This document shows positions 1 through 13,801 of a stretch of 64,000 bases of DNA, piece by piece. The notes beneath the pieces are model-generated. The model saw only the letters and a program-made list of their open reading frames with translations, made no database searches and had not been told where the DNA came from. Source of the DNA: Halanaerobacter jeridensis (GTDB lineage: Bacteria; Bacillota; Halanaerobiia; Halobacteroidales; Halobacteroidaceae); contig NZ_JAFBDQ010000005.1 in the NCBI RefSeq assembly GCF_016908315.1, forward strand, positions 1 to 64,000, given 5' to 3'. Position 1 is the stretch's first letter. Every line of letters starts with the position of its first letter. Made by a program: the position numbers and the translations under genes.

Positions 1-534
1 ACCACTAGAAGTGCTCTTATCCCTCAGCTGATTAATCGCCTTAAACTTATCAATCAACAGATTGAAGAAATCAAAGAACAATTAGCTGAAAAAATTGATG
101 ATAACCCCTATCAATTAACTACTATACCTGGATTAGGTTACACTTTAGCAGCTCAATTCATTGCTGAAATCGGTCATATTGACCGTTTTGATTCTGCTAA
201 TGAATTAGCTAGGTATGCTGGATTAGCACCAGCTGAATACAGCTCAGGCAAATCTCAGCAAAGTTCTAGGAAAAAATACGGCTGTCGTAACCTAAACCGG
301 GCTTTCTATCTACTAGCTTTACAACAAATTGGCACTACTAGAAATAACAGACCTAAAAATCCAGTTGCCTATAAATACTATCAGAAAAAATTAGCTGAGG
401 GTAAATCACGCAAAGCTGCTTTAGTCTGCTTAAAAAGACGCTTAGTTGATATTATTTATGCTATGATGCGAGACAAATCTACCTATGAATTACCTGAAAC
501 TCCTGAGTACGAAGTCTTAAATCAAGCCAGTTAA
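1..534 (+). CDS. IS110-family transposase, C-terminal part (5' end lies outside the window)
   Basis: Frame 1 is open from base 1 to the TAA at 532-534; it is absent from the ORF track because it has no start codon in the window. The translation ...TIPGLGYTLAAQFIAEIGHIDRFDSANELARYAGLAPAEYSSGKS...KAALVCLKRRLVDIIYAMMRD resembles the C-terminal helix-hairpin-helix module of IS110/IS1111-type transposases. Confidence 0.75.
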   Translation, partial: TTRSALIPQLINRLKLINQQIEEIKEQLAEKIDDNPYQLTTIPGLGYTLAAQFIAEIGHIDRFDSANELARYAGLAPAEYSSGKSQQSSRKKYGCRNLNRAFYLLALQQIGTTRNNRPKNPVAYKYYQKKLAEGKSRKAALVCLKRRLVDIIYAMMRDKSTYELPETPEYEVLNQAS

Positions 535-1500: not shown

Positions 1501-1636
1501 TTCGGATAACGTCCCTGCGATTCGCGACGTCTCGCTACTGCTCCTATACTTTGCCTATTCTCCTAAATTTCATAAGTCAGTGCTTAACCCTGCACTATCC
1601 TCTAGACCTAGATGTCGCTAATCGCATGTTATATGA
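1501..1636 (-). repeat. attC-like cassette recombination site, copy 1
   Basis: Plus-strand 5' arm TTCGGATAAC-GTCCC-TGCGATT-C-GCGACGTCT; 3' arm AGATGTCGC-T-AATCGCA-T-GTTATATGA. The heptads TGCGATT and AATCGCA are perfectly complementary. About 85 nt of pyrimidine-rich loop lies between the arms. Confidence 0.8.
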
Positions 1637-2522
1637 TGGAGCGACCCGGAACCACAAAGATAAAATTCTGCTTTTGCTATTATCTTAGCTAAAAATCATT
1701 TCTTACGCATCACAAAGCAGTTCTATTCCTAGCCCAAAACTATTTACCTGAGGGAAAGGGGGCGAAACTTCTATCTTCCTAATAAGTGAATCTTTTCTCT
1801 CAATTATGTAATTCTTGCTAATATGTATAAACCCTTCATAAAATAATCCAATTTTCAAAAAGATAAAAATGGGTTTTCAACTTTCACATTCAAAATGAAA
1901 TTAAGGAGTTAGCTAATACAATTTTGCCATGCTATTCCAAGTTTTTTATCGTCTATCACAATGCTCTTTACTAACAAATTAAAAAGCTCTCCATTTAGCC
2001 TAACTCCTGTCCAGCACCGCACTGGTTTTCCTAACGAAAAGACTAGCCTAATAATTCCTAATCAAGGATAAAGAAAGGTTTTCTTCTGCCCCCTTTCCCT
2101 TTTCCAATTTTCTCTGCAAGATAGAAGTTGACTACATCAATCTAGCCATGCTATACCACAGATTATTTAATAACTCTTATGCTCTTTATTCTGCATTGAA
2201 AATTTATAAGTAGTCACACTTCTATCCTAAGAATAATCCAAATAAATAAACTTGCACAATGATAAAGAGGTTAGGAAATGTTATAAAAATATTGCTGAAG
2301 CTTTTTTTGAATTGAATCTTTTACCTGAGGTTTTAATGAAAGATTTTTAACCCTAATTTGTTTTCTTTTTAAATAAGTAACTAAAAAAGCTCTATTATTT
2401 TCCCTAATTTGCTATTAAAAATCTTAAACCTATAAAAAAATCACTATTTCCTAACCTTCCCTCGAAAATAGTGATCTCTTACTGGTTGGATTCTATAACT
2501 GAAAATCAATATCTTAGCTCTT
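1637..2522 (-). other. ORF-poor cassette (886 bp between attC-like sites 1 and 2)
   Basis: No credible ORF of 60 aa or more. It contains two 12-nt complementarities: GGGAAAGGGGGC at 1752-1763 with GCCCCCTTTCCC at 2088-2099, and AACTTCTATCTT at 1766-1777 with AAGATAGAAGTT at 2118-2129. Confidence 0.5.
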
Positions 2523-2657
2523 TCATATAACGTCCCGCAGCTTCGCGACGTCCCATCAATGCTCTATAACCTAATCTAATGCAACCTTAATTTCATAAGT
2601 CAGTCCTAACCTCATTTATACTCTACAATTGGATGTCGCTAAGCTGCTGTTATGCGA
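2523..2657 (-). repeat. attC-like cassette recombination site, copy 2
   Basis: TCATATAAC-GTCCC-GCAGCTT-C-GCGACGTCC ... GGATGTCGC-T-AAGCTGC-T-GTTATGCGA. The heptads are complementary. The terminal pair has covaried (..GTCC/GGAT.. here versus ..GTCT/AGAT.. in the other copies). The 5' flank complements GTTATATGA of copy 1. Confidence 0.8.
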
Positions 2658-2679
2658 AGTGCTAAATCTCAGATAACAA

Positions 2680-4140
2680 CTATATATCACTTGAAAAATA
2701 ATTATCAATGATTTTCCGTAATTTCTTTACTCCCTTCTCTTTGGCTTTATTTCGAATTTCTTCTTTGGAAAAATAATTTATTTGATATTTATTAGTGCTT
2801 TGAGCGCGTTCTTTCAAATAATCTTCTGCTTCTTTTTCAAAACCACCAGTAGACCATAACTCAAAAATGAGCTCTTTATTTCTATGTTCATCTTCTTGAA
2901 AAGTCCAACTTCTTATTTTAGGAATATTATCTGTCACCCATTTTTTAGCAAACCCCTTTCCTATTGGGGCTTTCTTTCCCTTGCATTCAACAATCCTTAA
3001 TCTATCGGGATTATCATAAGCAAGAACATCAATTTCTCTTCTTTCCCCACTATCTTTATCAAGAACTACCTCATTGATTTTAATATATATAGATGATTGA
3101 GAATAATAATATCCTACAGCCAATTCAAAAAGTGCTCCTCTTAAATTAATAGACGCTCCTCTTAAATCAGATAATTTATCAAATAAATCAAAATATTTAT
3201 CAGGATTTTTACTAATAACTGCAGAAGCATTTTCGATTACATTTACTAATGACTTCAATACTTCAGTATATTGGTTATCAAATAATTCATTAACAAATCC
3301 AATAAATATTCCTCGAGATTTAAGCAACTGAAAAGCTTCCTTCTCTAAATCTTCTACTATAATAATAGGGATAAAAGAAGAAACATTATGATTCTGTTTG
3401 ATAATATCAATTTTATTTAAAAAATATTCAACATGCTCTTCTAATACTTCTTTTCCCAGTAAAATATCTGCCACAATAAATCCTGGTGAATCTTCATTTC
3501 TTAAATTAAGAATATAAGATGGAGCTGTAAAACCCCACTGAAATTTATAAAATTCCGCATTATTAGATAACTTTTCTGCATCATTATAAGAAGTGAAATT
3601 TATTTTTTTCGCCCAATCTTCAAAATTAGAAATAGTTAGTTCTTTTGCTAACTCAATTGCTTTAAATCTGGTATGAGTTGAACTAACTTCTATTAATGAA
3701 TTCAACTGATATATATCATCAGTATATTCAACTAAAACATCTAATTGTAGCAAATCATCAATAATAGAGCTAGCCGGTTTATGTCCTTTTAACTTTTTAA
3801 TCGGAGAACAAGTATAACTAGGTAATTGATTCATATCTATAAATCCATCATGAAATAATACTGCTTGTATAAAAAAATGATACGCTTTAGCATGAGTTTC
3901 AAAACTGTTTACTAAATTTTGATAAAAAAGTTGAGTCTTAAAATGATCACTTAAATAAATAAATTGTTGGTTATTATTAAAAGAAATAGTCTTCATTTTT
4001 TTCACAGGAGAATTTGCCCGGGAAATAGCTTTTCTAGCTGCATCATTAGTTATTTCATGTTTTTCTTCTAATTTTTTAGCTAATACTCCGGAAACCATTG
4101 GACCATCATCTTGAAGAATCTTTTCTATACGTGTTGTCAT
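2680..4140 (-). CDS. wHTH-like N-terminus plus Mrr/PD-(D/E)xK-like nuclease C-terminus (486 aa), single-gene cassette
   Basis: The C-terminal pattern GALFELAVGYYY...REIDVLAYD...LRIVECKGKK resembles the Mrr-type restriction endonuclease core. The N-terminus MTTRIEKILQDDGPMVSGVLAKKLEE... looks like a winged helix. It is the only ORF between sites 2 and 3. Confidence 0.55.
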   Translation of the reverse strand: MTTRIEKILQDDGPMVSGVLAKKLEEKHEITNDAARKAISRANSPVKKMKTISFNNNQQFIYLSDHFKTQLFYQNLVNSFETHAKAYHFFIQAVLFHDGFIDMNQLPSYTCSPIKKLKGHKPASSIIDDLLQLDVLVEYTDDIYQLNSLIEVSSTHTRFKAIELAKELTISNFEDWAKKINFTSYNDAEKLSNNAEFYKFQWGFTAPSYILNLRNEDSPGFIVADILLGKEVLEEHVEYFLNKIDIIKQNHNVSSFIPIIIVEDLEKEAFQLLKSRGIFIGFVNELFDNQYTEVLKSLVNVIENASAVISKNPDKYFDLFDKLSDLRGASINLRGALFELAVGYYYSQSSIYIKINEVVLDKDSGERREIDVLAYDNPDRLRIVECKGKKAPIGKGFAKKWVTDNIPKIRSWTFQEDEHRNKELIFELWSTGGFEKEAEDYLKERAQSTNKYQINYFSKEEIRNKAKEKGVKKLRKIIDNYFSSDI

Positions 4141-4316
4141 TTTATGTCACACCTCACTATTTATAAATAAACAATCAATCAAGCGATCAATTAATTTTTT
4201 TAGTTTTTCAATACCGACAATTCAATAGTTCATAGAGCTGGAAAAAAATACAATGTCACACTTTCCTTTTCAAACTAAAAAATTGTCACTAAAATATGTA
4301 ACTAAGATTTAGCATT

Positions 4317-4453
4317 TCGCATAACGTCCCTGGGCTTCGCGACGTCTAGGCACTGCTCCTATACTTTTGCCTATGCTCCTAAATTTCATAAGTCAGTGCT
4401 GCAACCCTGCCATATCCTCTGTGCCTAGATGTCGCTAAGCCCATGTTATCTGA
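4317..4453 (-). repeat. attC-like cassette recombination site, copy 3
   Basis: TCGCATAAC-GTCCC-TGGGCTT-C-GCGACGTCT-AGGCAC ... GTGCCT-AGATGTCGC-T-AAGCCCA-T-GTTATCTGA. An extra 6-bp stem (AGGCAC/GTGCCT) is present. The flank TAGCATTTCGCATAAC complements GTTATGCGAAGTGCTA of copy 2. Confidence 0.8.
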
Positions 4454-4489
4454 CGTAGCCATTGTCGAATAAAAACTACTGTACTTACA

Positions 4490-6280
4490 TCAAAAATTTT
4501 GGTTATAATTAAGATTAGGTAAGGCAATTAAACAACTTGCTTTTTTATGATATCCATAGCGATTAAGCCCCATATTAGCAAATAAAAACACATCCTTCTT
4601 GGCTCTGGTAATCCCAACATAAAAAATGCTAAGCACTTCTTCAAATTCTTCTCTTAAAGAAGACAAAAACTGGAATTTACAACATTTATCAAACTCTTCC
4701 TTCCCTTGTTTAGCACTACACAACTTGCAAAGTCCTTTTGAAGTAGGAAATGAGTATGCTGTAACTCTAGGAATGTATACATAATCCCATTCTAATCCTT
4801 TGGCACCATGTATTGTAGTTATTGTTATCCTTTCATCAATTTCATTCATTAAATGCTTTAAAGATTCATTTTCTAACACAAAAGAAATCTTTTCAAACTT
4901 TTTATTTTTTGATATATTTTCTGCTTTAGTTTTTTGAAACAATTTTTTTAATAACCTTAACAAGGAATTATATATATACATTGTATCATCTTCATATATA
5001 TCTTCAGTAAGCAATTCCTCCATTCTATCAACAACTCTACTTAGTACACGTTTTGCAATAGATTGATTGATACCACTTTCTTCCAAAAACACATCTAAAG
5101 CTTTCTCATGAAAAGCTACATATTCTCTGTCAGTATCATTGAATAATCCATTAAAATAGGAAATAGATTGTTCTTCTAATTTTTCAATTACCTCATTAGT
5201 ACAATAACTAGCTCGACACAAAATAGATACATCATCAGAATCACTAATCTTATCTTTAATATGTTCTACAATAAACTCGGCTTCTTTATGATTGCTCTTA
5301 AAAAATTTAAAATTCATTTCAGCTTCTTTATCAAAAGAATCCATCTCACTATAATTTAAAAAGATACTACGAATATAACTGTCTAATTTTTTCATCTTTT
5401 CATTATCATCAAATCTATGATTTGTTTTGAATCTCATTTCTTCCATATTAAATTCCTCAGCCATATGGTCAAACAAATCAGGAATAGCTCCAATAAAGCC
5501 ATAAATTTTCTGAATTTTATCTCCCATTAAAATAATTTCGTTTTCTCCCATTAATTTTGTAAGCAATCTATATGATAAATAATTAGTATCTTGAAATTCA
5601 TCAACAATAATCATTTTATAATATTGCTGATAAAAATTTCTAATTGATTTCTTATTTAATAAATAATAGGAAAAAAGCAATAATCCATTAAATGTAATAA
5701 CTTCATTAGGGATTAATATTTCGTTTAAAATCTCAAAATAATTGCTTTCTAACTTTTCAACATTATCAATATTTTCTTTTTCAAACCCATTAAAATTTTT
5801 AATACATTTGTCATACTCTGATAAAATGTCCATTTCCGAAGATGATAGATAATCCTTTAGCACTGCTGAATAATCGGATACTATTCTAAAAGAATCCATA
5901 GCCCCCAAATTTTTATTTAATAAATATCCATGTTTTTTTAACAAAATTCTTGCTAAATTATGATAATTTGCTACATCAAGTTTCTTGGATAAATCAACAT
6001 TTTCATCATCTAATAATTCAGGTAATAATTCATTAGTATCTTTTTTAATTTTATTAGCTGCATTTACGCTAAATGTAAGGGCTAATATTTTTTTATGATG
6101 TATTGTCGGATCTGTAACTATTTTGTAAGCAATTTTACTAATCATTGTTTTGGTTTTCCCATATCCAGCTGGAGCAGTTACAATTATTCTTTGTTTTTGA
6201 CTGAAAATAAAATCAAGTTGCTCTTCATCTTTTCCATGAATATCCTCAATTGATTTAGAAATAGCTTTTTTATTCTTCAT
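4490..6280 (-). CDS. gajB: UvrD/PcrA-like SF1 helicase, Gabija GajB-like (596 aa)
   Basis: Walker A VTAPAGYGKTKT, motif II IIVDEFQDTN, TIHGAKGLEWDYVYIP and YVGITRAKKDVFLF. It overlaps the upstream OLD-family gene by 11 nt. Confidence 0.8.
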   Translation of the reverse strand: MKNKKAISKSIEDIHGKDEEQLDFIFSQKQRIIVTAPAGYGKTKTMISKIAYKIVTDPTIHHKKILALTFSVNAANKIKKDTNELLPELLDDENVDLSKKLDVANYHNLARILLKKHGYLLNKNLGAMDSFRIVSDYSAVLKDYLSSSEMDILSEYDKCIKNFNGFEKENIDNVEKLESNYFEILNEILIPNEVITFNGLLLFSYYLLNKKSIRNFYQQYYKMIIVDEFQDTNYLSYRLLTKLMGENEIILMGDKIQKIYGFIGAIPDLFDHMAEEFNMEEMRFKTNHRFDDNEKMKKLDSYIRSIFLNYSEMDSFDKEAEMNFKFFKSNHKEAEFIVEHIKDKISDSDDVSILCRASYCTNEVIEKLEEQSISYFNGLFNDTDREYVAFHEKALDVFLEESGINQSIAKRVLSRVVDRMEELLTEDIYEDDTMYIYNSLLRLLKKLFQKTKAENISKNKKFEKISFVLENESLKHLMNEIDERITITTIHGAKGLEWDYVYIPRVTAYSFPTSKGLCKLCSAKQGKEEFDKCCKFQFLSSLREEFEEVLSIFYVGITRAKKDVFLFANMGLNRYGYHKKASCLIALPNLNYNQNF

Positions 6281-7997
6281 TATCTTCTACTCCATTCATT
6301 AATTCTTCTATAATATCTTTAAAAACTTCAGGCACATTAGTAACATATTTTGCTAAAAGAGAACCATTTAAAGCATTTTTTTTATTCCTTAATTGTTTTA
6401 TTTCTTCTTCTTGATAATTTAGCATAATTCTATTTTTAACTTCCTCAGGAACCTCATATTCTTCAGGAGCTTCTATAAAAAGTCTGGGACTAAATTCTTC
6501 CATCTCCTTTTTTAAATAATTTATAAAAGGAGTAATTTTATCTGCTTCCTTTTGATAAAGCAAATAATCATTAAAATCAAAACTATTATATATTTCTGCT
6601 TCAAAATCTATTTCATTTGTGAAAAATATTCCATCTTCATTTTTATATTTTTCTTCTTGATCTTTATCAATTATAGCTATAGCTCTAATATCATATGCAT
6701 CATAAAGTTTCATACATCTAAGAACACTACCAGCCCCATCAAGTTTTATAATTCCAATACTTTCTTCATCAATATCATATCCTATTCTTTCAATAAGTAC
6801 TGGTAAAGCTCCGAATTCTGTATCACCTTCTACAAGAACTACAGCTTTACTAAACATAGCTTCTTTAATATACATAAAACTTCTTATTAAGTGTTTATGA
6901 GTTTTATCATTAAAATCTATATTTCTACCACACTTTACATTAACTTTATCATTAACCTTATATAATCTAGTAATTTGTTTATAGTTATTTAATAATATAT
7001 TAGGAGAATGTGTAACAACAAACACTTGTCCAATCAAACCATCTATTTCAAATAATTCTTCGAGAAGTTTGATAAAGTCTTCATTCTTATTATCAATAAT
7101 TCTTTTTATACCTTTAATTAATGCTCTTTGTCTATATGGATGTTGGTGTATTTCAGGTTCATCTAAAGCAATTACAATTGGTAAATATCTATTTCCCTCA
7201 TCATCATTAATTAAAATATTATTAAATTTTTCTTCTTTCTTATTAGTTTTTAATTTTATTAACAAATCTAAAATATATAAAAATATATTAAATGAATATT
7301 GTAAGCCATCACCAAGTTCATTTAAACTTTTACCTGTATTGTCTCCTACCTCTAAAATTCGACTAACAATATTCTGCTCATCATCATCCACAAATGCTTC
7401 AATTACTTCTCCTTTTAACCCATTTATTTTATATATTTTTTTATTTAAATCATCAACAATTTCATTAACATCACTAATATTAATTAAATCTAAATTTTCT
7501 ATATCTCTTTCCTCCAAAATGTTTTCAACTAAGTAATTTAAAACTTTTCCAGTTCCAGTGTTTTTTGAAAAATCTATTTCTTTGCTAGGATTCCTTAATG
7601 ACGAATAATAAATAAAATTGATTTTTTTAATAGTTATTGGATTTATATATGTATCTGCCGGAGATGCATGTTTATATTCAATTCGACTATAAATATCTTC
7701 TTGAGTTGCTATAATAGTTAAACTATATTCATCATCAATATCAAAATTATTTTCAAAAAAACCCAATTCATCTTTATTGTAACTTATAGTGAATTTAACA
7801 GATATCTCCTTCTTTGTATCATCAAAATGTTCTTCATAGAATTTACCCTTACGTAATAAACAATTAAGCAACTCCATTACATTAGTTTTACCAACATTAT
7901 TTTCTCCAACTAAAAAATTAATTTCCTCATCAAATTTAAAATTTAGTCCGCTTAAATTCTTGAAATTTTTTACTTCTTTTATTTCACTTACAAACAT
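6270..7997 (-). CDS. gajA: OLD-family ATPase-TOPRIM nuclease, Gabija GajA-like (575 aa)
   Basis: N-terminal ABC-like ATPase (FLVGENNVGKTNVMELL; LDEPEIHQHP) and a C-terminal TOPRIM (AVVLVEGDTEFGALPVL; IAIIDKD). It is immediately followed by the UvrD-like gene, which is the class-2 OLD/Gabija arrangement. Confidence 0.8.
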   Translation of the reverse strand: MFVSEIKEVKNFKNLSGLNFKFDEEINFLVGENNVGKTNVMELLNCLLRKGKFYEEHFDDTKKEISVKFTISYNKDELGFFENNFDIDDEYSLTIIATQEDIYSRIEYKHASPADTYINPITIKKINFIYYSSLRNPSKEIDFSKNTGTGKVLNYLVENILEERDIENLDLINISDVNEIVDDLNKKIYKINGLKGEVIEAFVDDDEQNIVSRILEVGDNTGKSLNELGDGLQYSFNIFLYILDLLIKLKTNKKEEKFNNILINDDEGNRYLPIVIALDEPEIHQHPYRQRALIKGIKRIIDNKNEDFIKLLEELFEIDGLIGQVFVVTHSPNILLNNYKQITRLYKVNDKVNVKCGRNIDFNDKTHKHLIRSFMYIKEAMFSKAVVLVEGDTEFGALPVLIERIGYDIDEESIGIIKLDGAGSVLRCMKLYDAYDIRAIAIIDKDQEEKYKNEDGIFFTNEIDFEAEIYNSFDFNDYLLYQKEADKITPFINYLKKEMEEFSPRLFIEAPEEYEVPEEVKNRIMLNYQEEEIKQLRNKKNALNGSLLAKYVTNVPEVFKDIIEELMNGVEDNEE

Positions 7998-8128
7998 TTT
8001 TTTTGCCCCCGTTTCAATTTAAGTAATTAATCTTCTAATTTAAATAAAATTAGTTCATCGATTAAAATCAAGAAAAATTATATTTGATCTTAATCTCTTT
8101 GGATAACCTCTTTTTCAAAATGGCTATG

Positions 8129-8263
8129 TCAGATAACGTCCCTGGGGTTCGCGACGTCTCGGGACTGCTCCTCTATTCTGCTCATCATCCTAAATTTCAT
8201 AAGTCAGTGCTACAACCCTGCCCTATCCTCTTACCTAGATGTCGCTAAGCTCATGTTATGTGA
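8129..8263 (-). repeat. attC-like cassette recombination site, copy 4
   Basis: TCAGATAAC-GTCCC-TGGGGTT-C-GCGACGTCT ... AGATGTCGC-T-AAGCTCA-T-GTTATGTGA. The heptads pair with one G:T and one mismatch. The flank AATGGCTATGTCAGATAAC complements GTTATCTGACGTAGCCATT of copy 3. Confidence 0.8.
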
Positions 8264-8749
8264 TGTAGTTAGCAAAAGATATTTTCTATATTCTCCAAAA
8301 CCTATGCAAACACTTCTAAACTATGCTAAACCTATTCTACTCACCTTTGCTAATGAGACTTTTCTTTCACAATCCTTCCCAAACAGCTCTAATTAGAGTT
8401 CTCTTACAACTATAATTCTATAACTTTAAAAAAAGAATAAACCGAAAGAGATAGAGTAGATATCCTTCCCTAAAATGGTTTCTAAATGTGTTTTTAACTT
8501 CACTATACTCAAAAATTTGCCTCTAAACCTGAGCATTTTCGCCGAAAAATTATACCAACGCCCAAAATATAGCCTAGGCATCGCTACTGGACTAACTTCA
8601 AACAAATATACTTCCACATAACTTATATAAGCCTTAACTCTATATTTCTTTTCCTTAATATAAAAAAGCATCTACTCTATCTCTTGACCGGTTATAGAAT
8701 TCTGCAGCATTTTCTATTCTAATACAAACAAACCCATTTGCTAACTATG

Positions 8750-8886
8750 TCACATAACGTCCCTGGGCTTCGCGACGTCTCGGGACTGCTCCTATACTTT
8801 TGCTTATCCTCATAAATTTCATAAGTCAGTGCTGCAACCCTGCCCTATCCTCTATACCTAGATGTCGCTAAGCCCATGTTATCCGA
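8750..8886 (-). repeat. attC-like cassette recombination site, copy 5
   Basis: TCACATAAC-GTCCC-TGGGCTT-C-GCGACGTCT ... AGATGTCGC-T-AAGCCCA-T-GTTATCCGA. The flank TTTGCTAACTATGTCACATAAC complements GTTATGTGATGTAGTTAGCAAA of copy 4. Confidence 0.8.
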
Positions 8887-8923
8887 CGCCCGGCTTCTAT
8901 AAAAAATATATCCCTCTTTTAAC

Positions 8924-9781
8924 CTAGTAACTTTTTAATATATCTAAATATTCACTTTTTGTTTCATTATCATATAAACCCTTCGCTTCATTTAGAGTTT
9001 CTATAGCCCAGTCTACATATTTTTGATTTACTTTTTTACTATTTTCTATTTTTTCTATAAATCTTTCTATTTTATTTCTCAATTTATTGTTTACTGATTT
9101 TAATTTTTCTTCCAATTGTTCATTCTCTTCTGCTAGTTCTTCATTCTCTTCTGCTAGTTCTTCATTCTCTTGCTCTAATTGTTCTTCAATTTCTTTTAAC
9201 ATTTCTAATCTTTGTTTTAACCGTTGTGTTTCCTTCTTTTCTTGTTGTGTTTCCTTCTTTTCTTGTTGTGTTTCCTTCTTTTCTTGTTGTGTTTCCTTCT
9301 TTTCTTGTTGTAATTTCTTATCAGACTGCTCAACTGCCTCATCTAATGCACTTAACTCTTCATCACTCCATTCAGTACTTTCCTTACTACTCTCACCTTC
9401 ATTTAATATTTCTTTTATTTTGCTTTTAACCCAACTAGGAGCTTCTATAAAATCTTTTCTCAATCTTTTATTCTCTGATTTCAACAACTCTTTATAAGCT
9501 AAATCTAAATTAGAAAGATTATCTTTAGTCAATATATCTATTTCAATTAAATTTTCTGCGAATTCTCCTGGTTTCATAAATTTATCTTCTAATTTGCTTA
9601 TTTCTTCTAATTCGTCATATAATTTAGTTTTAGCCTTATTAGTACTTAATTCAGCTTGTTTTAGTTTCTCTTCTGTTAAACCATAATCCTCATTTAACTT
9701 AGTAGTTACATCATCTGCTAAAACATTCACTGTCAAAACCAATAGCAATACAATCAATAATAAAACACTTAACTTCTTCAT
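8924..9781 (-). CDS. secreted coiled-coil protein with tandem heptapeptide repeats (285 aa)
   Basis: N-terminal signal-like segment MKKLSVLLLIVLLLVLTVNVLA. It carries a QQEKKET x4 repeat and an ELAEENE repeat, is strongly charged and looks helical. It is the sole ORF of the cassette between sites 5 and 6. Confidence 0.6.
   Translation of the reverse strand: MKKLSVLLLIVLLLVLTVNVLADDVTTKLNEDYGLTEEKLKQAELSTNKAKTKLYDELEEISKLEDKFMKPGEFAENLIEIDILTKDNLSNLDLAYKELLKSENKRLRKDFIEAPSWVKSKIKEILNEGESSKESTEWSDEELSALDEAVEQSDKKLQQEKKETQQEKKETQQEKKETQQEKKETQRLKQRLEMLKEIEEQLEQENEELAEENEELAEENEQLEEKLKSVNNKLRNKIERFIEKIENSKKVNQKYVDWAIETLNEAKGLYDNETKSEYLDILKSY
9224..9307 (-). repeat. 4 x 21-bp perfect tandem repeat inside the coiled-coil gene
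   Basis: The unit ttgtgtttccttcttttcttg is repeated four times on the plus strand and encodes QQEKKET x4. A second 21-bp unit (ttcattctcttctgctagttc) is repeated just over twice at about 9121-9170. Confidence 0.85.
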
Positions 9782-9860
9782 AATCTGCCTCCCCTAAATT
9801 ATGGTTTTTAATGTTTTTAATATGTATTTCTTTCAATAAAAATAGCAGCTAAGCCGGGTT

Positions 9861-9994
9861 TCGGATAACGTCCCTAGGGTTCGCGACGTCTAGCTAAACC
9901 CTCCTATAACTTGTCCATCCTCTAAAACTCAATATTCAATTCCTAACCTTCCCTAACCTCTCAACCTAGATGTCGCTAACCCTATGTTAGACGA
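9861..9994 (-). repeat. attC-like cassette recombination site, copy 6 (divergent loop subfamily)
   Basis: TCGGATAAC-GTCCC-TAGGGTT-C-GCGACGTCT ... AGATGTCGC-T-AACCCTA-T-GTTAGACGA. The heptads are complementary. The loop differs from copies 1-5. The flank AAGCCGGGTTTCGGATAAC complements GTTATCCGACGCCCGGCTT of copy 5. Confidence 0.8.
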
Positions 9995-10014
9995 TGTTTG
10001 CTTGATAAAAATCA

Positions 10015-11046
10015 TTACCTTCTCTCTATTTCTTCAATTATTAATTTTGGGAATTTATATTCAATTACAGCAATAGCTTCTTTTAAAAGCGGATAAGAAA
10101 AATCTCCTTTTGAACTAGTAATCATTGACATCCAATGAGTTGGATAATATCGAACTAACATACCAATCGCATATGAAATAATGTAAATAGTTAATAAAGA
10201 AGAAAAATTTAAATTATCAGCTAAAGGGGCAACAGCAAATATATTATTTTTTCTATCATTTTTTACAAACGGAACTCTATTATAAAACTCTTCATTAGAA
10301 GAATGAATTATTCTAAAAGATATATTTTCTAAATTACCTGCAAAATTATGTTTTTCCTTCTTTCTCGTTTTAATGTCTTTTGGTAAACCAAAGTCATCTC
10401 TAACTAATTCCTTATTAGGTAACCCAATACTAGTTTCTAACACTGCAATATCTGTTTGTTCAGATAAACAAAAAACAATTGCATTATAACATTTAGAATA
10501 ATCATCAAAAGTATTCTCATATATATTTTGTAATTCCGGAATCCTCGCTAATATTTCTTTAATAGTAATTAAATTATTACTATCTTCTTTACCCCCATAT
10601 TGTTTTATTTTAGTTCGATTTGGATATGGAGCTATATATATTGAACTTCTCTCAATATTTTCTGTAACCTCCCATAACTTAGAAAATGTGCCAGAAGTAA
10701 TCTCAACATTCAAATTAGGTACTTCTTCTATTCCATCTGAAAGTTTTTGGGTCCAATTTTTCACTCTTAATCCATGAGATGGTTTAAGGCTAGTTACTCT
10801 TGCAAAAGGATCTAAAAATAAAATTAATCCACGACAAAATGCAACTACTCCGTAATAAAACAATAGAGGAGATACAACATTATCAGCCTGTTTTGCACTG
10901 GAAAAATATTCTCTTCCTTGAGTAATATGAGAAACTATTTCCTCTGCTTTTCCAGCCGAAAGTTCTCTATCATGCTTCTCTTCATAAAATTTTGAAACTA
11001 AATCTTTGCTTTCATACAAAGATATCTTAGACCAAACATTTTTCAT
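10015..11046 (-). CDS. YaaC-like protein (343 aa), second gene of a two-gene cassette
   Basis: The N-terminal region ...EIVSHITQGREYFSSAKQADNVVSPLLFYYGVVAFCRGLILFLDP... resembles my recollection of the B. subtilis YaaC family. The family assignment was not verified by any search. Confidence 0.45.
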   Translation of the reverse strand: MKNVWSKISLYESKDLVSKFYEEKHDRELSAGKAEEIVSHITQGREYFSSAKQADNVVSPLLFYYGVVAFCRGLILFLDPFARVTSLKPSHGLRVKNWTQKLSDGIEEVPNLNVEITSGTFSKLWEVTENIERSSIYIAPYPNRTKIKQYGGKEDSNNLITIKEILARIPELQNIYENTFDDYSKCYNAIVFCLSEQTDIAVLETSIGLPNKELVRDDFGLPKDIKTRKKEKHNFAGNLENISFRIIHSSNEEFYNRVPFVKNDRKNNIFAVAPLADNLNFSSLLTIYIISYAIGMLVRYYPTHWMSMITSSKGDFSYPLLKEAIAVIEYKFPKLIIEEIERR

Positions 11047-11069
11047 TATTTACCTCCCTTTTTCCCTTG

Positions 11070-11528
11070 TCACAAATTTACTTTTTCTAACTGTGTAGGC
11101 CAAGCTCCTTGACCATTTCCTCCTTTAAAATAAACTCTATAATTTTTTCCTATAGAAGAAACAACATGTTTAGTAATATACTTCTTTTCTTCACCATCAA
11201 TTTCAACTTTACTTTTCTTTTTAACTTTGTCTCCAGGCTTTAAATTTAATTCTTCAATTGCTTGCTTATTATTTTCTTTTAATTTATCCTCAATTTTTGC
11301 TGAGGCAACTCTCAACGAATTGTTTTTAAGATCTAAACCCAATTCTTCTCCAAATTCAATTTGTTTTTCAGTAGACTCATTAAATTCCATATTAGGATCA
11401 ATTGCTGGTTCAACTGCATCATAAATCCTTGCACTTGCTACATTACGAGTATCATTAGAAATATCAACTTCTAATTTAATTGCTATATTCTTTTGAAATG
11501 GTGTTGGTTTTTTATGAACATCATTCAC
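11070..11528 (-). CDS. hypothetical protein with an internal duplicated ~32-aa motif (152 aa), first gene of the two-gene cassette
   Basis: The two repeats are TPFQKNIAIKLEVDISNDTRNVASARIYDAV and STEKQIEFGEELGLDLKNNSLRVASAKIEDKL. The lysine-rich C-terminal segment ends in ...YRVYFKGGNGQGAWPTQLEKV. It lies 23 nt upstream of the YaaC-like gene. Confidence 0.5.
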   Translation of the reverse strand: MNDVHKKPTPFQKNIAIKLEVDISNDTRNVASARIYDAVEPAIDPNMEFNESTEKQIEFGEELGLDLKNNSLRVASAKIEDKLKENNKQAIEELNLKPGDKVKKKSKVEIDGEEKKYITKHVVSSIGKNYRVYFKGGNGQGAWPTQLEKVNL

Positions 11529-11573
11529 AAATAAATTTCCTCCTTTAAAAAATATAATATAACAAAAGCAAAT

Positions 11574-11709
11574 GTCGTCTAACGTCCCTGGGGTTCGCGA
11601 CGTCTAGCTCAACCCTCTTATAACTTGTCCTTCCTATAAAACTTTCATATGTAATCTCTACCTTCACCCATCCTCCTAGCCTAGATGTCGCTAACCCCAT
11701 GTTATGTGA
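11574..11709 (-). repeat. attC-like cassette recombination site, copy 7 (divergent loop subfamily)
   Basis: TCGTCTAAC-GTCCC-TGGGGTT-C-GCGACGTCT ... AGATGTCGC-T-AACCCCA-T-GTTATGTGA. Its CTAAC core matches the GTTAG of copy 6 rather than its own GTTAT. Confidence 0.8.
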
Positions 11710-11845
11710 TGCTTCTGATCGGTTAATAAAAAATAATCCCCAATAAAATTAAAACCCTCATTAAAATTTAGCATAATAATAAATACTCATATCAAACAAC
11801 TATAATTCGAATTATTTTATACTAATATTATATTCAACCTTACTT

Positions 11846-12648
11846 TTACTCCTCAATTTGCAACTCAACTCCTGGTATATAAACATTAATCCTTTCTATT
11901 TTAAATCTAATTCTATTTTCTAATTCTTTTTTCACAATATCTTGAATTGTTTGCCCTACTTTATAAACTTTTTTCTAGAATCAACAATTATATTTAAGTT
12001 AACAGTAATTCTTTCACCTTGTCTTTCAATCTCAACACCTTTAGATAAATCTTTTAAACCTAATATATCCTTAAGCGCATTCAAAAAACTACCTCCATTA
12101 GTATCTACTACCCCATCTATCTCTCTAACAACTATTCCCACTAACTCTTCTATCTTGTTATATTTTTCATCTTCAATACTAATTGAATTCAATTCAATAT
12201 TATTTTCATTTCCTAATTTATATTTAGGAAATAATCTATTACTTGGATCATCTGGTTCAGTATAATCAAATTTTTTTATATTAACTTTAACCTTGTTAAC
12301 TTCAATTCCTGTTTTATGTTTCAATCTATATTTTACAGTATCTCTTATTTCTTGGGCTACTATATTACTTTGCATTTCATCTTTTATTATTGCATTAATT
12401 TCAATAATAAATCCGTCATCAATTATTCTATATTCTATTCCCTTAGATAAATTATTTATTCCTAATAATACACGAATATCATCAAAAAAACTTCCCTGCG
12501 TATCAATTACTCCATCTATTTCTCTAACAATAACCCCAATTAAAATTTTTATTACTTCTTTAGAAATCCTAATCTTTCCTTTGTTATTTTTTTGTTCAAT
12601 ATCAATATCCTTAGATTTTTTCATAATTGTTTTGCTCTCCTTTTGCAA
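11846..12648 (-). pseudogene. tandem-domain Asp23/Gls24-like protein, frameshifted in a homopolymer (first cassette next to the attI-like site)
   Basis: There are two Asp23-like halves (VIKILIGVIVREIDGVIDTQG... and IEELVGIVVREIDGVVDTNGG...). The ORF-track ORF stops at 11956, but the second domain continues in another frame (KVYKVGQTIQDIVKKELENRIRFKIERINVYIPGVELQIEE, stop at 11846-11848). The frame change is at the T6 run at 11969-11974. Confidence 0.6.
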
Positions 12649-12675
12649 TATAGATAAAAAGTTTTATAAGAAGTT

Positions 12676-12760
12676 TCACATAACTTATTTTTTAACGACA
12701 CAAAAATCATAATTTATAGTTGTTCCTTATATTTACGATGATTGTGTCGTTAAAATCAGA
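12676..12760 (-). promoter_or_regulatory. attI-like primary recombination site abutting the recombinase stop codon
   Basis: TCACATAAC at 12676-12684 complements GTTATGTGA at the right end of copy 7. An inverted pair of boxes follows: TTAACGACACA at 12692-12702 and TGTGTCGTTAA at 12743-12753. The box TGTCGTTAA matches TGTCGCTAA of the attC-like arms at 8 of 9 positions. Confidence 0.6.
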
Positions 12761-13801
12761 TTAGTTGATTAAATTATCTAACGGACTTTCTATGTTTGCA
12801 ATATCTCTTTTGCTGACATGAGTATATATTTCAGTAGTAGTAGAACTCTTATGTCCTAATAATTTTTGGATGTATCGTAAATCAGTTCCTTGCTCTAATA
12901 AATGTGTTGCAAAAGAATGTCTTAAAGTATGTACAGAAACATCTTTAGTAATATTAGCTTTTCTACAGGCTTTTTTGAATATTCTTTGTACTGATCTTGT
13001 AGTTAAGTGTTCTCCTTCTTTGCCTCCAGGAAACAACCTCTTTTCGGGTTGATATAATTGATGATACATTTTTATCTGTTTCAGACAAGATTCTGATAAG
13101 ATCGTATAGCGATCTTTTCTCCCCTTCCCTTGATTAATTTTAATTAGCATTCTATCACTATTAATATCATCCATTTTTAGTTTAACAACTTCACTAACCC
13201 TTAATCCAGCAGAATAAACTACATACAAAATTGTTTTATGTTTGGGGTTATCTAGACTATCTAAAATCTTCGCTACTTCTTTTTTACTTAATACTTCCGG
13301 TAACTTTTTTTCTTTTTGTGGTCGTGATAAAACAACTGAAATATCTTTATTATCCAATACTTCCCGGGCCAAGAACTTAATAGCACTAATCCCCTGGTTA
13401 ACAAATGAATGTGATAAATCTTGGTCTAATAAATCCAACAAATAATCCTTAATCTCAGCATCAGTCACTCGTGATAACTTCTTATTAATAAATCGTGCAA
13501 ACTGCCTAATATGACTCATATAAACTTTTTCCGTCTTTTCACTATAACCTTCTAAATTTAACTGATTTTTTAGTTCATTAATTACTAGTTCATTTTCTAA
13601 AGCACTGGAAATTATAATTCTTTCATTAACAAATTTCTCTTTTAACTGTTCTAAAATATCATAATCATAAGGTACTAACCATGCTCTAGCTTTAGGGGCC
13701 CATTCCCGCTTATTAATTTCTTTAATTTTTTTAATTTTTCTTTCCGAATAATCAAATTTAACAGCTAGTTGTCCTTCTAACTTTTCAATTCTTAATGTCA
13801 T
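12761..13801 (-). CDS. tyrosine recombinase (Xer/integrase family, 346 aa) with a ~70-aa N-terminal extension; candidate cassette integrase
   Basis: Catalytic motifs are present: AGLRVSEV, HTLRHSFATHLL and LLGHKSSTTTEIYTHV. Only about 55 aa separate GKGRKDRYTIL from HTLRHSF, so the ~100-aa spacing I recall for IntI1 and VchIntIA is absent. The N-terminus is MTLRIEKLEGQLAVKFDYSERKIKKIKEINKREWAPKARAWLVPYDY... Confidence 0.85.
   Translation of the reverse strand: MTLRIEKLEGQLAVKFDYSERKIKKIKEINKREWAPKARAWLVPYDYDILEQLKEKFVNERIIISSALENELVINELKNQLNLEGYSEKTEKVYMSHIRQFARFINKKLSRVTDAEIKDYLLDLLDQDLSHSFVNQGISAIKFLAREVLDNKDISVVLSRPQKEKKLPEVLSKKEVAKILDSLDNPKHKTILYVVYSAGLRVSEVVKLKMDDINSDRMLIKINQGKGRKDRYTILSESCLKQIKMYHQLYQPEKRLFPGGKEGEHLTTRSVQRIFKKACRKANITKDVSVHTLRHSFATHLLEQGTDLRYIQKLLGHKSSTTTEIYTHVSKRDIANIESPLDNLIN

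Follow-up and report, generated by a model that had tools for sequence, protein, structure and literature searches.

The window analyzed here is the 64,000-nucleotide (nt) stretch that opens contig NZ_JAFBDQ010000005.1 of Halanaerobacter jeridensis, and within it two adjacent genes on the minus strand encode a small protein of 152 amino acids (aa), which belongs to an unannotated family, and a 343-aa protein of the YaaC family. Two modular, uncharacterized families meet here in a defense-type cassette, a combination seen in no other locus searched. Below we describe the two genes and the array that carries them, the folds and genomic contexts of the two families, and the function that these observations may point to.

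The gene pair occupies one cassette of an integron-like array

Both open reading frames (ORFs) that the original prediction placed 23 nt apart are present, and together they form a single tight operon in one mobile cassette (Table 1). The sequence of the 23-nt spacer between them contains no remnant of an attC site. Database proteins of Halanaerobacter jeridensis match the small and the YaaC-like products with 100% identity and coverage (P0001 and P0121, respectively); the gene calls thus match an annotation already on record. A promoter scan of the region returned 17 candidates against 17.7 expected, with none above chance inside the cassette, and a terminator scan of the region likewise gave results at chance level.

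The words 'cassette' and 'array', used earlier for this region from inspection of the sequence, prove apt. Palindromes of ~130 bp lie on both sides of the pair and five more copies follow downstream, so that the window contains seven near-identical, imperfect palindromes in a common orientation. Each copy follows one general plan, in which a box resembling the inverse core (e.g., GTCTAAC) is followed by a stem (GGGGTTAGCGACATCTAGG...CTAGACGTCGCGAACCCC) that encloses a variable loop of ~70 nt, and then by a core-like box (GTTAGAC or GTTATCC). Motif searches with the palindrome cores gave 10 matches where 0.26 and 0.01 were expected by chance. When the copies were folded as single-stranded DNA the long-range stem was recovered with z scores of -2.2 to -4.7, the site upstream of the pair scoring -3.3 on the minus strand and -4.7 on the plus strand. 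Some of the boxes depart from the integron consensus (inverse core RYYYAAC, core GTTRRRY), and no extrahelical bases are evident in the folds.

Upstream of the pair lies a gene for a tyrosine recombinase of the Xer-like type. The protein passes the NF040815 model, 'tyrosine recombinase/integron integrase', with a score of 227.8 against a cut-off of 220, and scores 218 bits against TIGR02249, below the cut-off of 265. The match to TIGR02249 is split, residues 73-248 aligning to profile positions 1-178 and the alignment resuming at about position 250, which indicates that the IntI-specific segment is missing from this recombinase. Given the palindromes flanking both genes and the recombinase upstream, the pair fills one cassette of an integron-like array, which comprises at least seven cassettes (window positions 1504-13801) and may continue leftward out of the window. 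The ends of the cassette were placed by the GTT of the R'-like boxes and by alignment of the repeats; the crossover point was assumed by analogy with integrons, and at the 5' end would fall between the G and the TT at 11583/11582.

The attC-like palindromes that bound the unit all share one orientation and may correspond to the attC sites of an integron gene cassette. The unit departs from the integron arrangement in that the recombinase has no IntI-specific additional domain and is encoded on the same strand as the cassettes. Phage-defense genes have been documented in integron cassettes (bioRxiv 10.1101/2024.07.02.601719; 10.64898/2026.03.17.712381), and the present unit resembles them as a compact, defense-type unit with attC-like borders in an array that also holds a Gabija system. 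It differs from them in its Halanaerobiales host and in the Xer-like recombinase. A literature search on integrons in Halanaerobiales found no paper, and an Rfam search of the array region matched no family.

Table 1. Features of the gene pair and of the array around it (positions are those of the window unless residues are given).
Feature	Position	Strand	Details
Small ORF, 152 aa	11528..11070	minus	GTG start, AGGAGG upstream
Intergenic spacer, 23 nt	11047..11069	minus	Carries the ribosome-binding site GGGAGG of the YaaC-like gene; operon arrangement
YaaC-like ORF, 343 aa	11046..10015	minus	ATG start, GGGAGG 6 nt upstream
Small protein, helical hairpins	about residues 8-43 and 52-94		Acidic
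Small protein, SH3/Tudor-like beta-barrel	about residues 96-150		Basic
Cassette unit, 1,714 bp	11582..9869	minus	54-nt leader, small ORF, 23-nt spacer, YaaC-like ORF, 22 nt, own attC-like site
Upstream attC-like palindrome	11577..11707	minus	R''-like ACATAAC, stem GGGGTTAGCGACATCTAGG / CTAGACGTCGCGAACCCC, R'-like GTTAGAC
Downstream attC-like palindrome (cassette 3' end)	9863..9992	minus	R''-like GTCTAAC, R'-like GTTATCC
Five further attC-like copies	~8884-8752, 8261-8131, 4451-4319, 2655-2525, 1634-1504		Same orientation
Tyrosine recombinase	13801..12761	minus	Upstream of the pair, same strand as the cassettes
Complete Gabija system (GajA/GajB)	7997..4490	minus	Own ~3.8-kb cassette between attC-like sites

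The YaaC-like protein is predicted to adopt a HEPN fold

The resemblance of the larger protein to the YaaC family, first noticed by reading its translation, is upheld by a profile search, in which PF14175 matches at 134.8 bits (cut-off 27; E 5.7e-39) and the alignment covers profile positions 7-307 of 307. The same domain is present in every YaaC relative found. YaaC is the protein's sole Pfam match, and searches of PADLOC, NCBIfam and PHROGs gave none. Our literature search, the results of which were swamped by author names, retrieved no function for YaaC and no link between the family and HEPN proteins or defense.

AlphaFold2, given 20 relatives, modeled the protein with high confidence (predicted local distance difference test, pLDDT, 93.9; predicted template modeling score, pTM, 0.92). 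In this model helices 31-53, 59-78, 283-300 and 318-342 bundle as a HEPN-type four-helix core, which is interrupted by an alpha/beta insertion of ~190 residues at ~90-275. The four helices run up and down as in other HEPN proteins, and by its model the YaaC-like protein has a HEPN fold; non-catalytic HEPN domains, for example the one in sacsin, are among its structural neighbors. At the junction of α3 and α4 the sequence R299-YYPT-H304 (RYYPTH) forms an Rx4H motif, the arginine of which is kept in 41 of the 41 relatives that have a residue at this position in an alignment of 44. Invariant or near-invariant positions of the family are Q43, Y65-G66, H91-G92, G119, F121, R168, R299, W305 and D315.

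The small protein combines a duplicated helical motif with an SH3-like barrel

The AlphaFold2 model of the small protein is also confident (pLDDT 94.1). Helical hairpins occupy residues 10-43 and 54-94, and behind them a small β-barrel at 101-149 holds the conserved motif FKGGNGQGAWPTQL. The duplicated motif noted earlier in this protein is borne out at the family level, where the profiles of repeat 1 and repeat 2 match each other with 98.4% probability (E 6.3e-15, 35 columns); by eye, segments ~8-40 and ~52-84 of the protein itself share 11 of 32 positions. The repeat segments taken singly gave no BLASTP match, so the duplication is visible solely with profiles, and profile-profile comparison of the repeat with the C-terminus of the family gave no signal. 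The repeat consensus of the family reads [PA]T..Q...A..LG.D[IV]..DS..VA[AS]A[RK]I.

A fold search of the Protein Data Bank (PDB) matched the ~50-residue SH3-like barrel alone, and a search of viral structures gave nothing at E <= 0.001. Sequence searches of the PDB with the small-family profile, the YaaC-family profile and three partner proteins returned nothing. The small protein has no match in Pfam, NCBIfam, PHROGs or PADLOC, and a relaxed Pfam scan of 36 members produced no consistent match; weak hits to TraE, TasA and phrog_29689 were dropped as chance or uninformative.

The family to which the small protein belongs is well conserved: a word-indexed search found 126 matches, and of 1.84 billion cluster representatives 408 matched at E <= 1e-3, including 67 at <= 1e-30. 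Its members are almost all standalone proteins of ~150 aa and come from Proteobacteria, NC10, Nitrospirota, Planctomycetota, Cyanobacteria, Actinomycetota and other groups. No homologues were found in the plasmid, phage and IMG/VR collections.

The pairing is not conserved, and the small family has many different neighbors

The conservation of the pairing was examined in 76 loci, consisting of small-family loci (26 from genomes, 21 from metagenomes and the contigs of the closest relatives) together with 20 YaaC loci, by searching all six frames of each with hidden Markov models (HMMs) of both families. The small family was detected in 56 loci and YaaC in 20, with no locus containing both. Flanking sequence extends at least 1.1 kb downstream in 39 of the 56 small-family loci and at least 780 bp upstream in 19 of the 20 YaaC loci. 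The original prediction had named a failure of the two families to co-occur elsewhere as grounds for its own refutation, and a conserved two-family system is accordingly not supported. The zero overlap means that there is no evolutionary evidence that the two proteins work together, and it marks the joining of these two modular components as a one-off. The closest relatives also differ in their partners, the small protein with 68% identity being followed by BrxL and the YaaC protein with 56% identity accompanying TIR and SLATT proteins. The earlier statement that no function has been described for this pairing still stands, as PADLOC, NCBIfam and PHROGs hold nothing for the pair and Pfam gave YaaC only.

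Relatives of both proteins are found among restriction-modification (RM), BREX, TIR/SLATT, OLD-like and Shedu genes. Neither a crude box-plus-stem scan nor a core-motif search found attC-like sites in the relatives' loci, a negative that is weak because the crude scan missed one of the seven sites of the window and called two others solely in the opposite orientation.

The neighbors of the small family differ in almost every locus, and all-against-all BLAST revealed no conserved neighbor family, the sole clusters being near-identical syntenic loci. The small gene is typically packed 5-100 nt from genes on the same strand, and many of these tightly packed neighbors are of defense or effector type. 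The BrxL Lon-like gene follows the closest relative, and an OLD-like AAA_15 ATPase gene lies 49 nt downstream of a family member. In a further locus the small gene is preceded by genes for a PLD-SNF2 helicase and an MmeI-type methylase and followed by one for a MauJ-family protein, with a RES-domain protein encoded beyond it; elsewhere a 1,096-aa DEAD helicase lies upstream, and a type IIG-like RM enzyme also occurs among the neighbors. Other neighbors include DUF4145, DUF5677, DUF3800 and HNH_5 proteins downstream, GIY-YIG and HNH proteins upstream, and DUF2971. Some contexts appear unrelated to defense (RsgA/M48 peptidase, an MFS transporter, PhoX).

Several downstream partners (MauJ, DUF5677, a 373-aa and a 379-aa protein) were compared with the YaaC profile by hhalign as possible distant YaaC/HEPN relatives, and no signal resulted. 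By eye, two of these partners contain Rx4H-like motifs, for which we claim no YaaC/HEPN kinship.

One locus places the small module within a defense protein. In a Desulfobacteraceae metagenome-assembled genome (L026, ORF 159-1340) the complete module, with both repeats and the SH3-like barrel, makes up the N-terminal domain (residues 18-155; hhalign 98.5%, E 2.1e-15) of a Shedu nuclease, ahead of the SduA_C nuclease domain (PF14082, E 6.6e-14, residues 219-373). Removal of the N-terminal domain of Bacillus cereus Shedu activates its nuclease (Gu et al., bioRxiv 10.1101/2023.08.10.552793), and Shedu homologues carry 79 families of N-terminal domains, to which a regulatory or sensor role is ascribed (bioRxiv 10.1101/2023.08.10.552793). 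A search of that text for the words 'SH3' and 'Tudor' found neither, a result for the wording alone. The entire small module holds in L026 the position of these regulatory domains. In the window, by contrast, the module is free-standing and its neighbor is a YaaC protein rather than a PD-(D/E)xK nuclease; Pfam detects no SduA_C (DUF4263) domain in either protein of the pair. By the logic of domain fusion, the free-standing small protein is most simply taken as a regulatory or sensor module for the adjoining effector.

These contexts bear directly on whether the two genes have anything to do with each other. They could be functionally independent accessory or defense-island genes that came by chance to share a cassette, for example when two cassettes merged and the attC site between them was lost. 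That the pairing occurs nowhere else among the loci searched, that the small gene changes its neighbor from locus to locus, and that YaaC relatives also occur alone all agree with such independence. It fits less well with the 23-nt spacing, the dedicated ribosome-binding site and the lack of any attC remnant between the genes, with the close same-strand packing of the small gene, which suggests that it works with the gene it adjoins, and with the fusion of the module to Shedu. We regard independence as somewhat unlikely, while giving it real weight.

YaaC relatives travel with membrane proteins, nucleotide enzymes and mobile elements

The Halanaerobium YaaC protein that is 56% identical to the one in the window (L034-L037, 3357-6029) is encoded after SLATT and ThsB-type TIR genes, beside a type I RM system. 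On a plasmid of Eleftheria terrae (L068, 4610-7029) a YaaC gene follows genes for a DUF4231/SLATT_1 protein and a GTP cyclohydrolase II. The same three-gene order, that is a SLATT/DUF4231 membrane protein, a nucleotide enzyme (TIR or GTP cyclohydrolase II) and YaaC, is therefore seen in two distant lineages, and this synteny suggests that YaaC belongs to a conflict system of the SLATT type.

Elsewhere YaaC follows a zinc-ribbon protein in which a hydrophobic stretch resembles, by eye, a transmembrane segment, or a 186-aa protein in which visual inspection suggests two such segments, and in another locus its partner is a 367-aa protein with a HEIGH motif. Solo copies occur as well, one after IS110 and one beside an unrelated ParE/Phd pair. 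In a viral contig of IMG/VR (L073, 2976-6077) a YaaC-like gene stands directly after P2-type gpU/gpD tail genes, a position known as a hotspot for defense cargo in P2-like prophages.

Other cassettes of the array

The Gabija system of the array consists of GajA (575 aa; PADLOC E 6e-158) and GajB (596 aa; E 9.7e-179), the genes of which overlap by 11 nt. Three attC-like sites and two other cassettes lie between the Gabija cassette and the small/YaaC pair, which is not part of the GajA/GajB unit and occupies a cassette of its own.

Further cassettes encode proteins of diverse kinds. A 193-aa ORF (674-1255, minus) matches the COMM domain PF07258 at 28.1 bits (cut-off 22.4; E 2.2e-6), a domain mainly familiar from eukaryotic COMMD proteins. 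A 285-aa ORF (8924-9781, minus) carries a signal peptide and a coiled coil with exact tandem repeats (QQEKKET four times, ENEELAE three times) and has no match in Pfam, PADLOC, NCBIfam or PHROGs. Near the C-terminus of a 486-aa ORF (2680-4140, minus), which has no NCBIfam or Pfam match, a PD-(D/E)xK-like motif (IDVLAY...RIVECKGK) was recognized by eye and suggests another candidate nuclease-type defense gene. Finally, a 230-aa protein with two Asp23 domains is encoded downstream of the recombinase gene and ahead of the first attC-like site (11956-12648, minus), the place where attI and the first cassette would be expected.

A candidate defense module and its alternatives

A role in defense is plausible for the pair. 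The reading we tentatively favor, as a possibility to be taken seriously though one that falls short of probable, is that the small protein is a promiscuous antitoxin-like regulatory module that controls a HEPN-fold effector in a mobile defense or abortive-infection cassette. The original prediction had pointed to toxin-antitoxin or sensor-effector modules, and the predicted HEPN fold and the Shedu fusion now give that idea better backing. We also count in its favor the 23-nt spacer with its own ribosome-binding site inside a unit bounded by attC-like repeats, the presence of Gabija as another cassette of the same array, the defense-type or mobile surroundings of mobile-clade YaaC genes, and the packing of the small family into operons whose effector-type partners change.

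In the mechanism we propose, a single mobile cassette of the integron-like array would deliver the two-gene operon as a unit. The mobile-clade YaaC protein, a HEPN bundle with a large inserted domain, would be the effector and, by analogy with other HEPN proteins, might target RNA or otherwise arrest growth. The small protein would serve as the control subunit, an antitoxin-like regulator or a sensor that holds the effector silent, until an infection cue engages the module and the effector is released. The cue could be a phage protein recognized by the acidic repeats, or a nucleic acid to which the basic barrel binds. The negative sign of this control is borrowed from the inhibitory N-terminal domain of B. 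cereus Shedu. The analysis establishes the operon, the folds, the family memberships, the modular contexts, the Shedu fusion and the lack of a conserved pairing; we infer the interaction of the two proteins, the assignment of their roles, the sign of control, any RNase activity and the anti-phage role alike.

Several observations weigh against this proposal. Besides the lack of co-occurrence, PADLOC-DB v2.0 contains no family that matches either protein at E <= 0.1, in a search that matched GajA and GajB strongly. The histidine of the Rx4H motif is kept in just 11 of 41 relatives, the others having I, Q, L or R; the position of H304 is occupied by Q even in relatives of 43-46% identity, and the residue after the arginine is a tyrosine rather than the usual polar residue. 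The poorly conserved histidine and the tyrosine make classical HEPN RNase chemistry doubtful, and from these sequences such chemistry is uncertain for the family as a whole, which may bind ligands instead. YaaC elsewhere follows SLATT-type membrane proteins and nucleotide-processing enzymes, and this fits a regulator role as well as an effector role. Lastly, a Bacillus-type yaaC of Priestia, with 22% identity, adjoins guaB as a core gene.

Another possibility is that the roles are reversed or different, with YaaC acting as a non-catalytic sensor that binds a ligand or nucleotide and the small protein acting as an adaptor to a target elsewhere or as a nucleic-acid binder. Such a division of labor would accord with the conservation of the arginine alone within Rx4H while Q43, H91, R168 and D315 are invariant or nearly so, with the recurrence of YaaC after SLATT/DUF4231 membrane proteins even as the enzyme is swapped (TIR or GTP cyclohydrolase II), and with the non-catalytic HEPN domains, sacsin's among them, in its structural neighborhood. 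We consider it very unlikely, as the cassette contains neither a membrane effector nor an enzymatic one, the small protein has no enzyme-like features, and the small module holds a regulatory rather than an effector position in the Shedu fusion.

The pair could also be a classical type II toxin-antitoxin addiction module, composed of a labile, DNA-binding small antitoxin and a YaaC-HEPN toxin, whose main role would be to stabilize the array rather than to counter phages. Toxin-antitoxin cassettes are common in chromosomal integrons, and the order of the genes (small upstream, larger downstream, short spacer) together with the HEPN fold suits such an architecture. Known HEPN toxins, among them HEPN-MNT pairs such as SO_3166/SO_3165 and Abi-type HEPN proteins, differ in that the YaaC core is split by the ~190-residue insertion, its family does not conserve the catalytic histidine, and a tyrosine follows the arginine. 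The partner is likewise no MNT nucleotidyltransferase: it has no nucleotidyltransferase match, consists of helical repeats and an SH3-like barrel, and shows no recognized DNA-binding fold of an antitoxin. With no promoter above chance inside the cassette either, an addiction module of the classical type is in our judgment quite unlikely.

The Priestia gene bears on a different alternative, in which there is no conflict system at all and the cassette holds a horizontally moving copy of a housekeeping YaaC function of the Bacilli together with an accessory small protein. The family takes its name from a core Bacillus gene beside guaB, a context that the Priestia copy shows, and no defense model matched the pair. 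The window protein does resemble PF14175 and B. subtilis YaaC in its full-length HMM match and in sharing the family-conserved residues. Its identity to the Bacillus-type protein beside guaB is only ~22%, however, and the window copy and its close relatives differ from that protein in being mobile and lying in defense-type neighborhoods; the gene itself sits in a cassette array beside Gabija. We give a housekeeping origin of this kind little credence.

Among characterized systems, those closest to the module we favor in their working are HEPN-based two-gene toxin-antitoxin or abortive-infection modules and integron defense cassettes, and the pair is a member of no defined system tested. Mobile YaaC-HEPN proteins often adjoin membrane proteins, as in HEPN+TM two-gene systems; a literature search on FS_HEPN_TM found nothing. 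The small family resembles the hyper-promiscuous antitoxin domains (Panacea/DUF4065) in that a single small module combines with many unrelated types of effector or toxin, and differs from DUF4065 in that no relationship of sequence or fold was detected. We offer both resemblances, to Panacea/DUF4065 and to the HEPN+TM systems, as leads only.

A bolder version of the argument, which we think unlikely though worth stating, would make the ~150-aa family a new hyper-promiscuous, portable sensor or antitoxin-like module that stands, free or fused, before unrelated effectors, namely YaaC-HEPN, the BrxL Lon protease, an OLD-type ATPase, HNH/GIY-YIG proteins and the Shedu nuclease. Mobile YaaC would then be an unrecognized HEPN-derived defense component, and the whole would be carried by an integron-like array run by an Xer-type recombinase.

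Should the favored reading be wrong, the locus would amount to two hypothetical genes in a variable region. If it is right, the pair would offer the first functional handle on YaaC, a Pfam family without a known role that has a HEPN-type fold and travels with defense genes, and the set of regulatory modules that bacterial immunity reuses would gain an unannotated family of small proteins. The Shedu fusion found in nature would provide a direct route to testing the regulatory role of the small module, and the idea of cassette arrays as stores of defense genes would extend to Halanaerobiales, in a genome whose recombinase is non-canonical.

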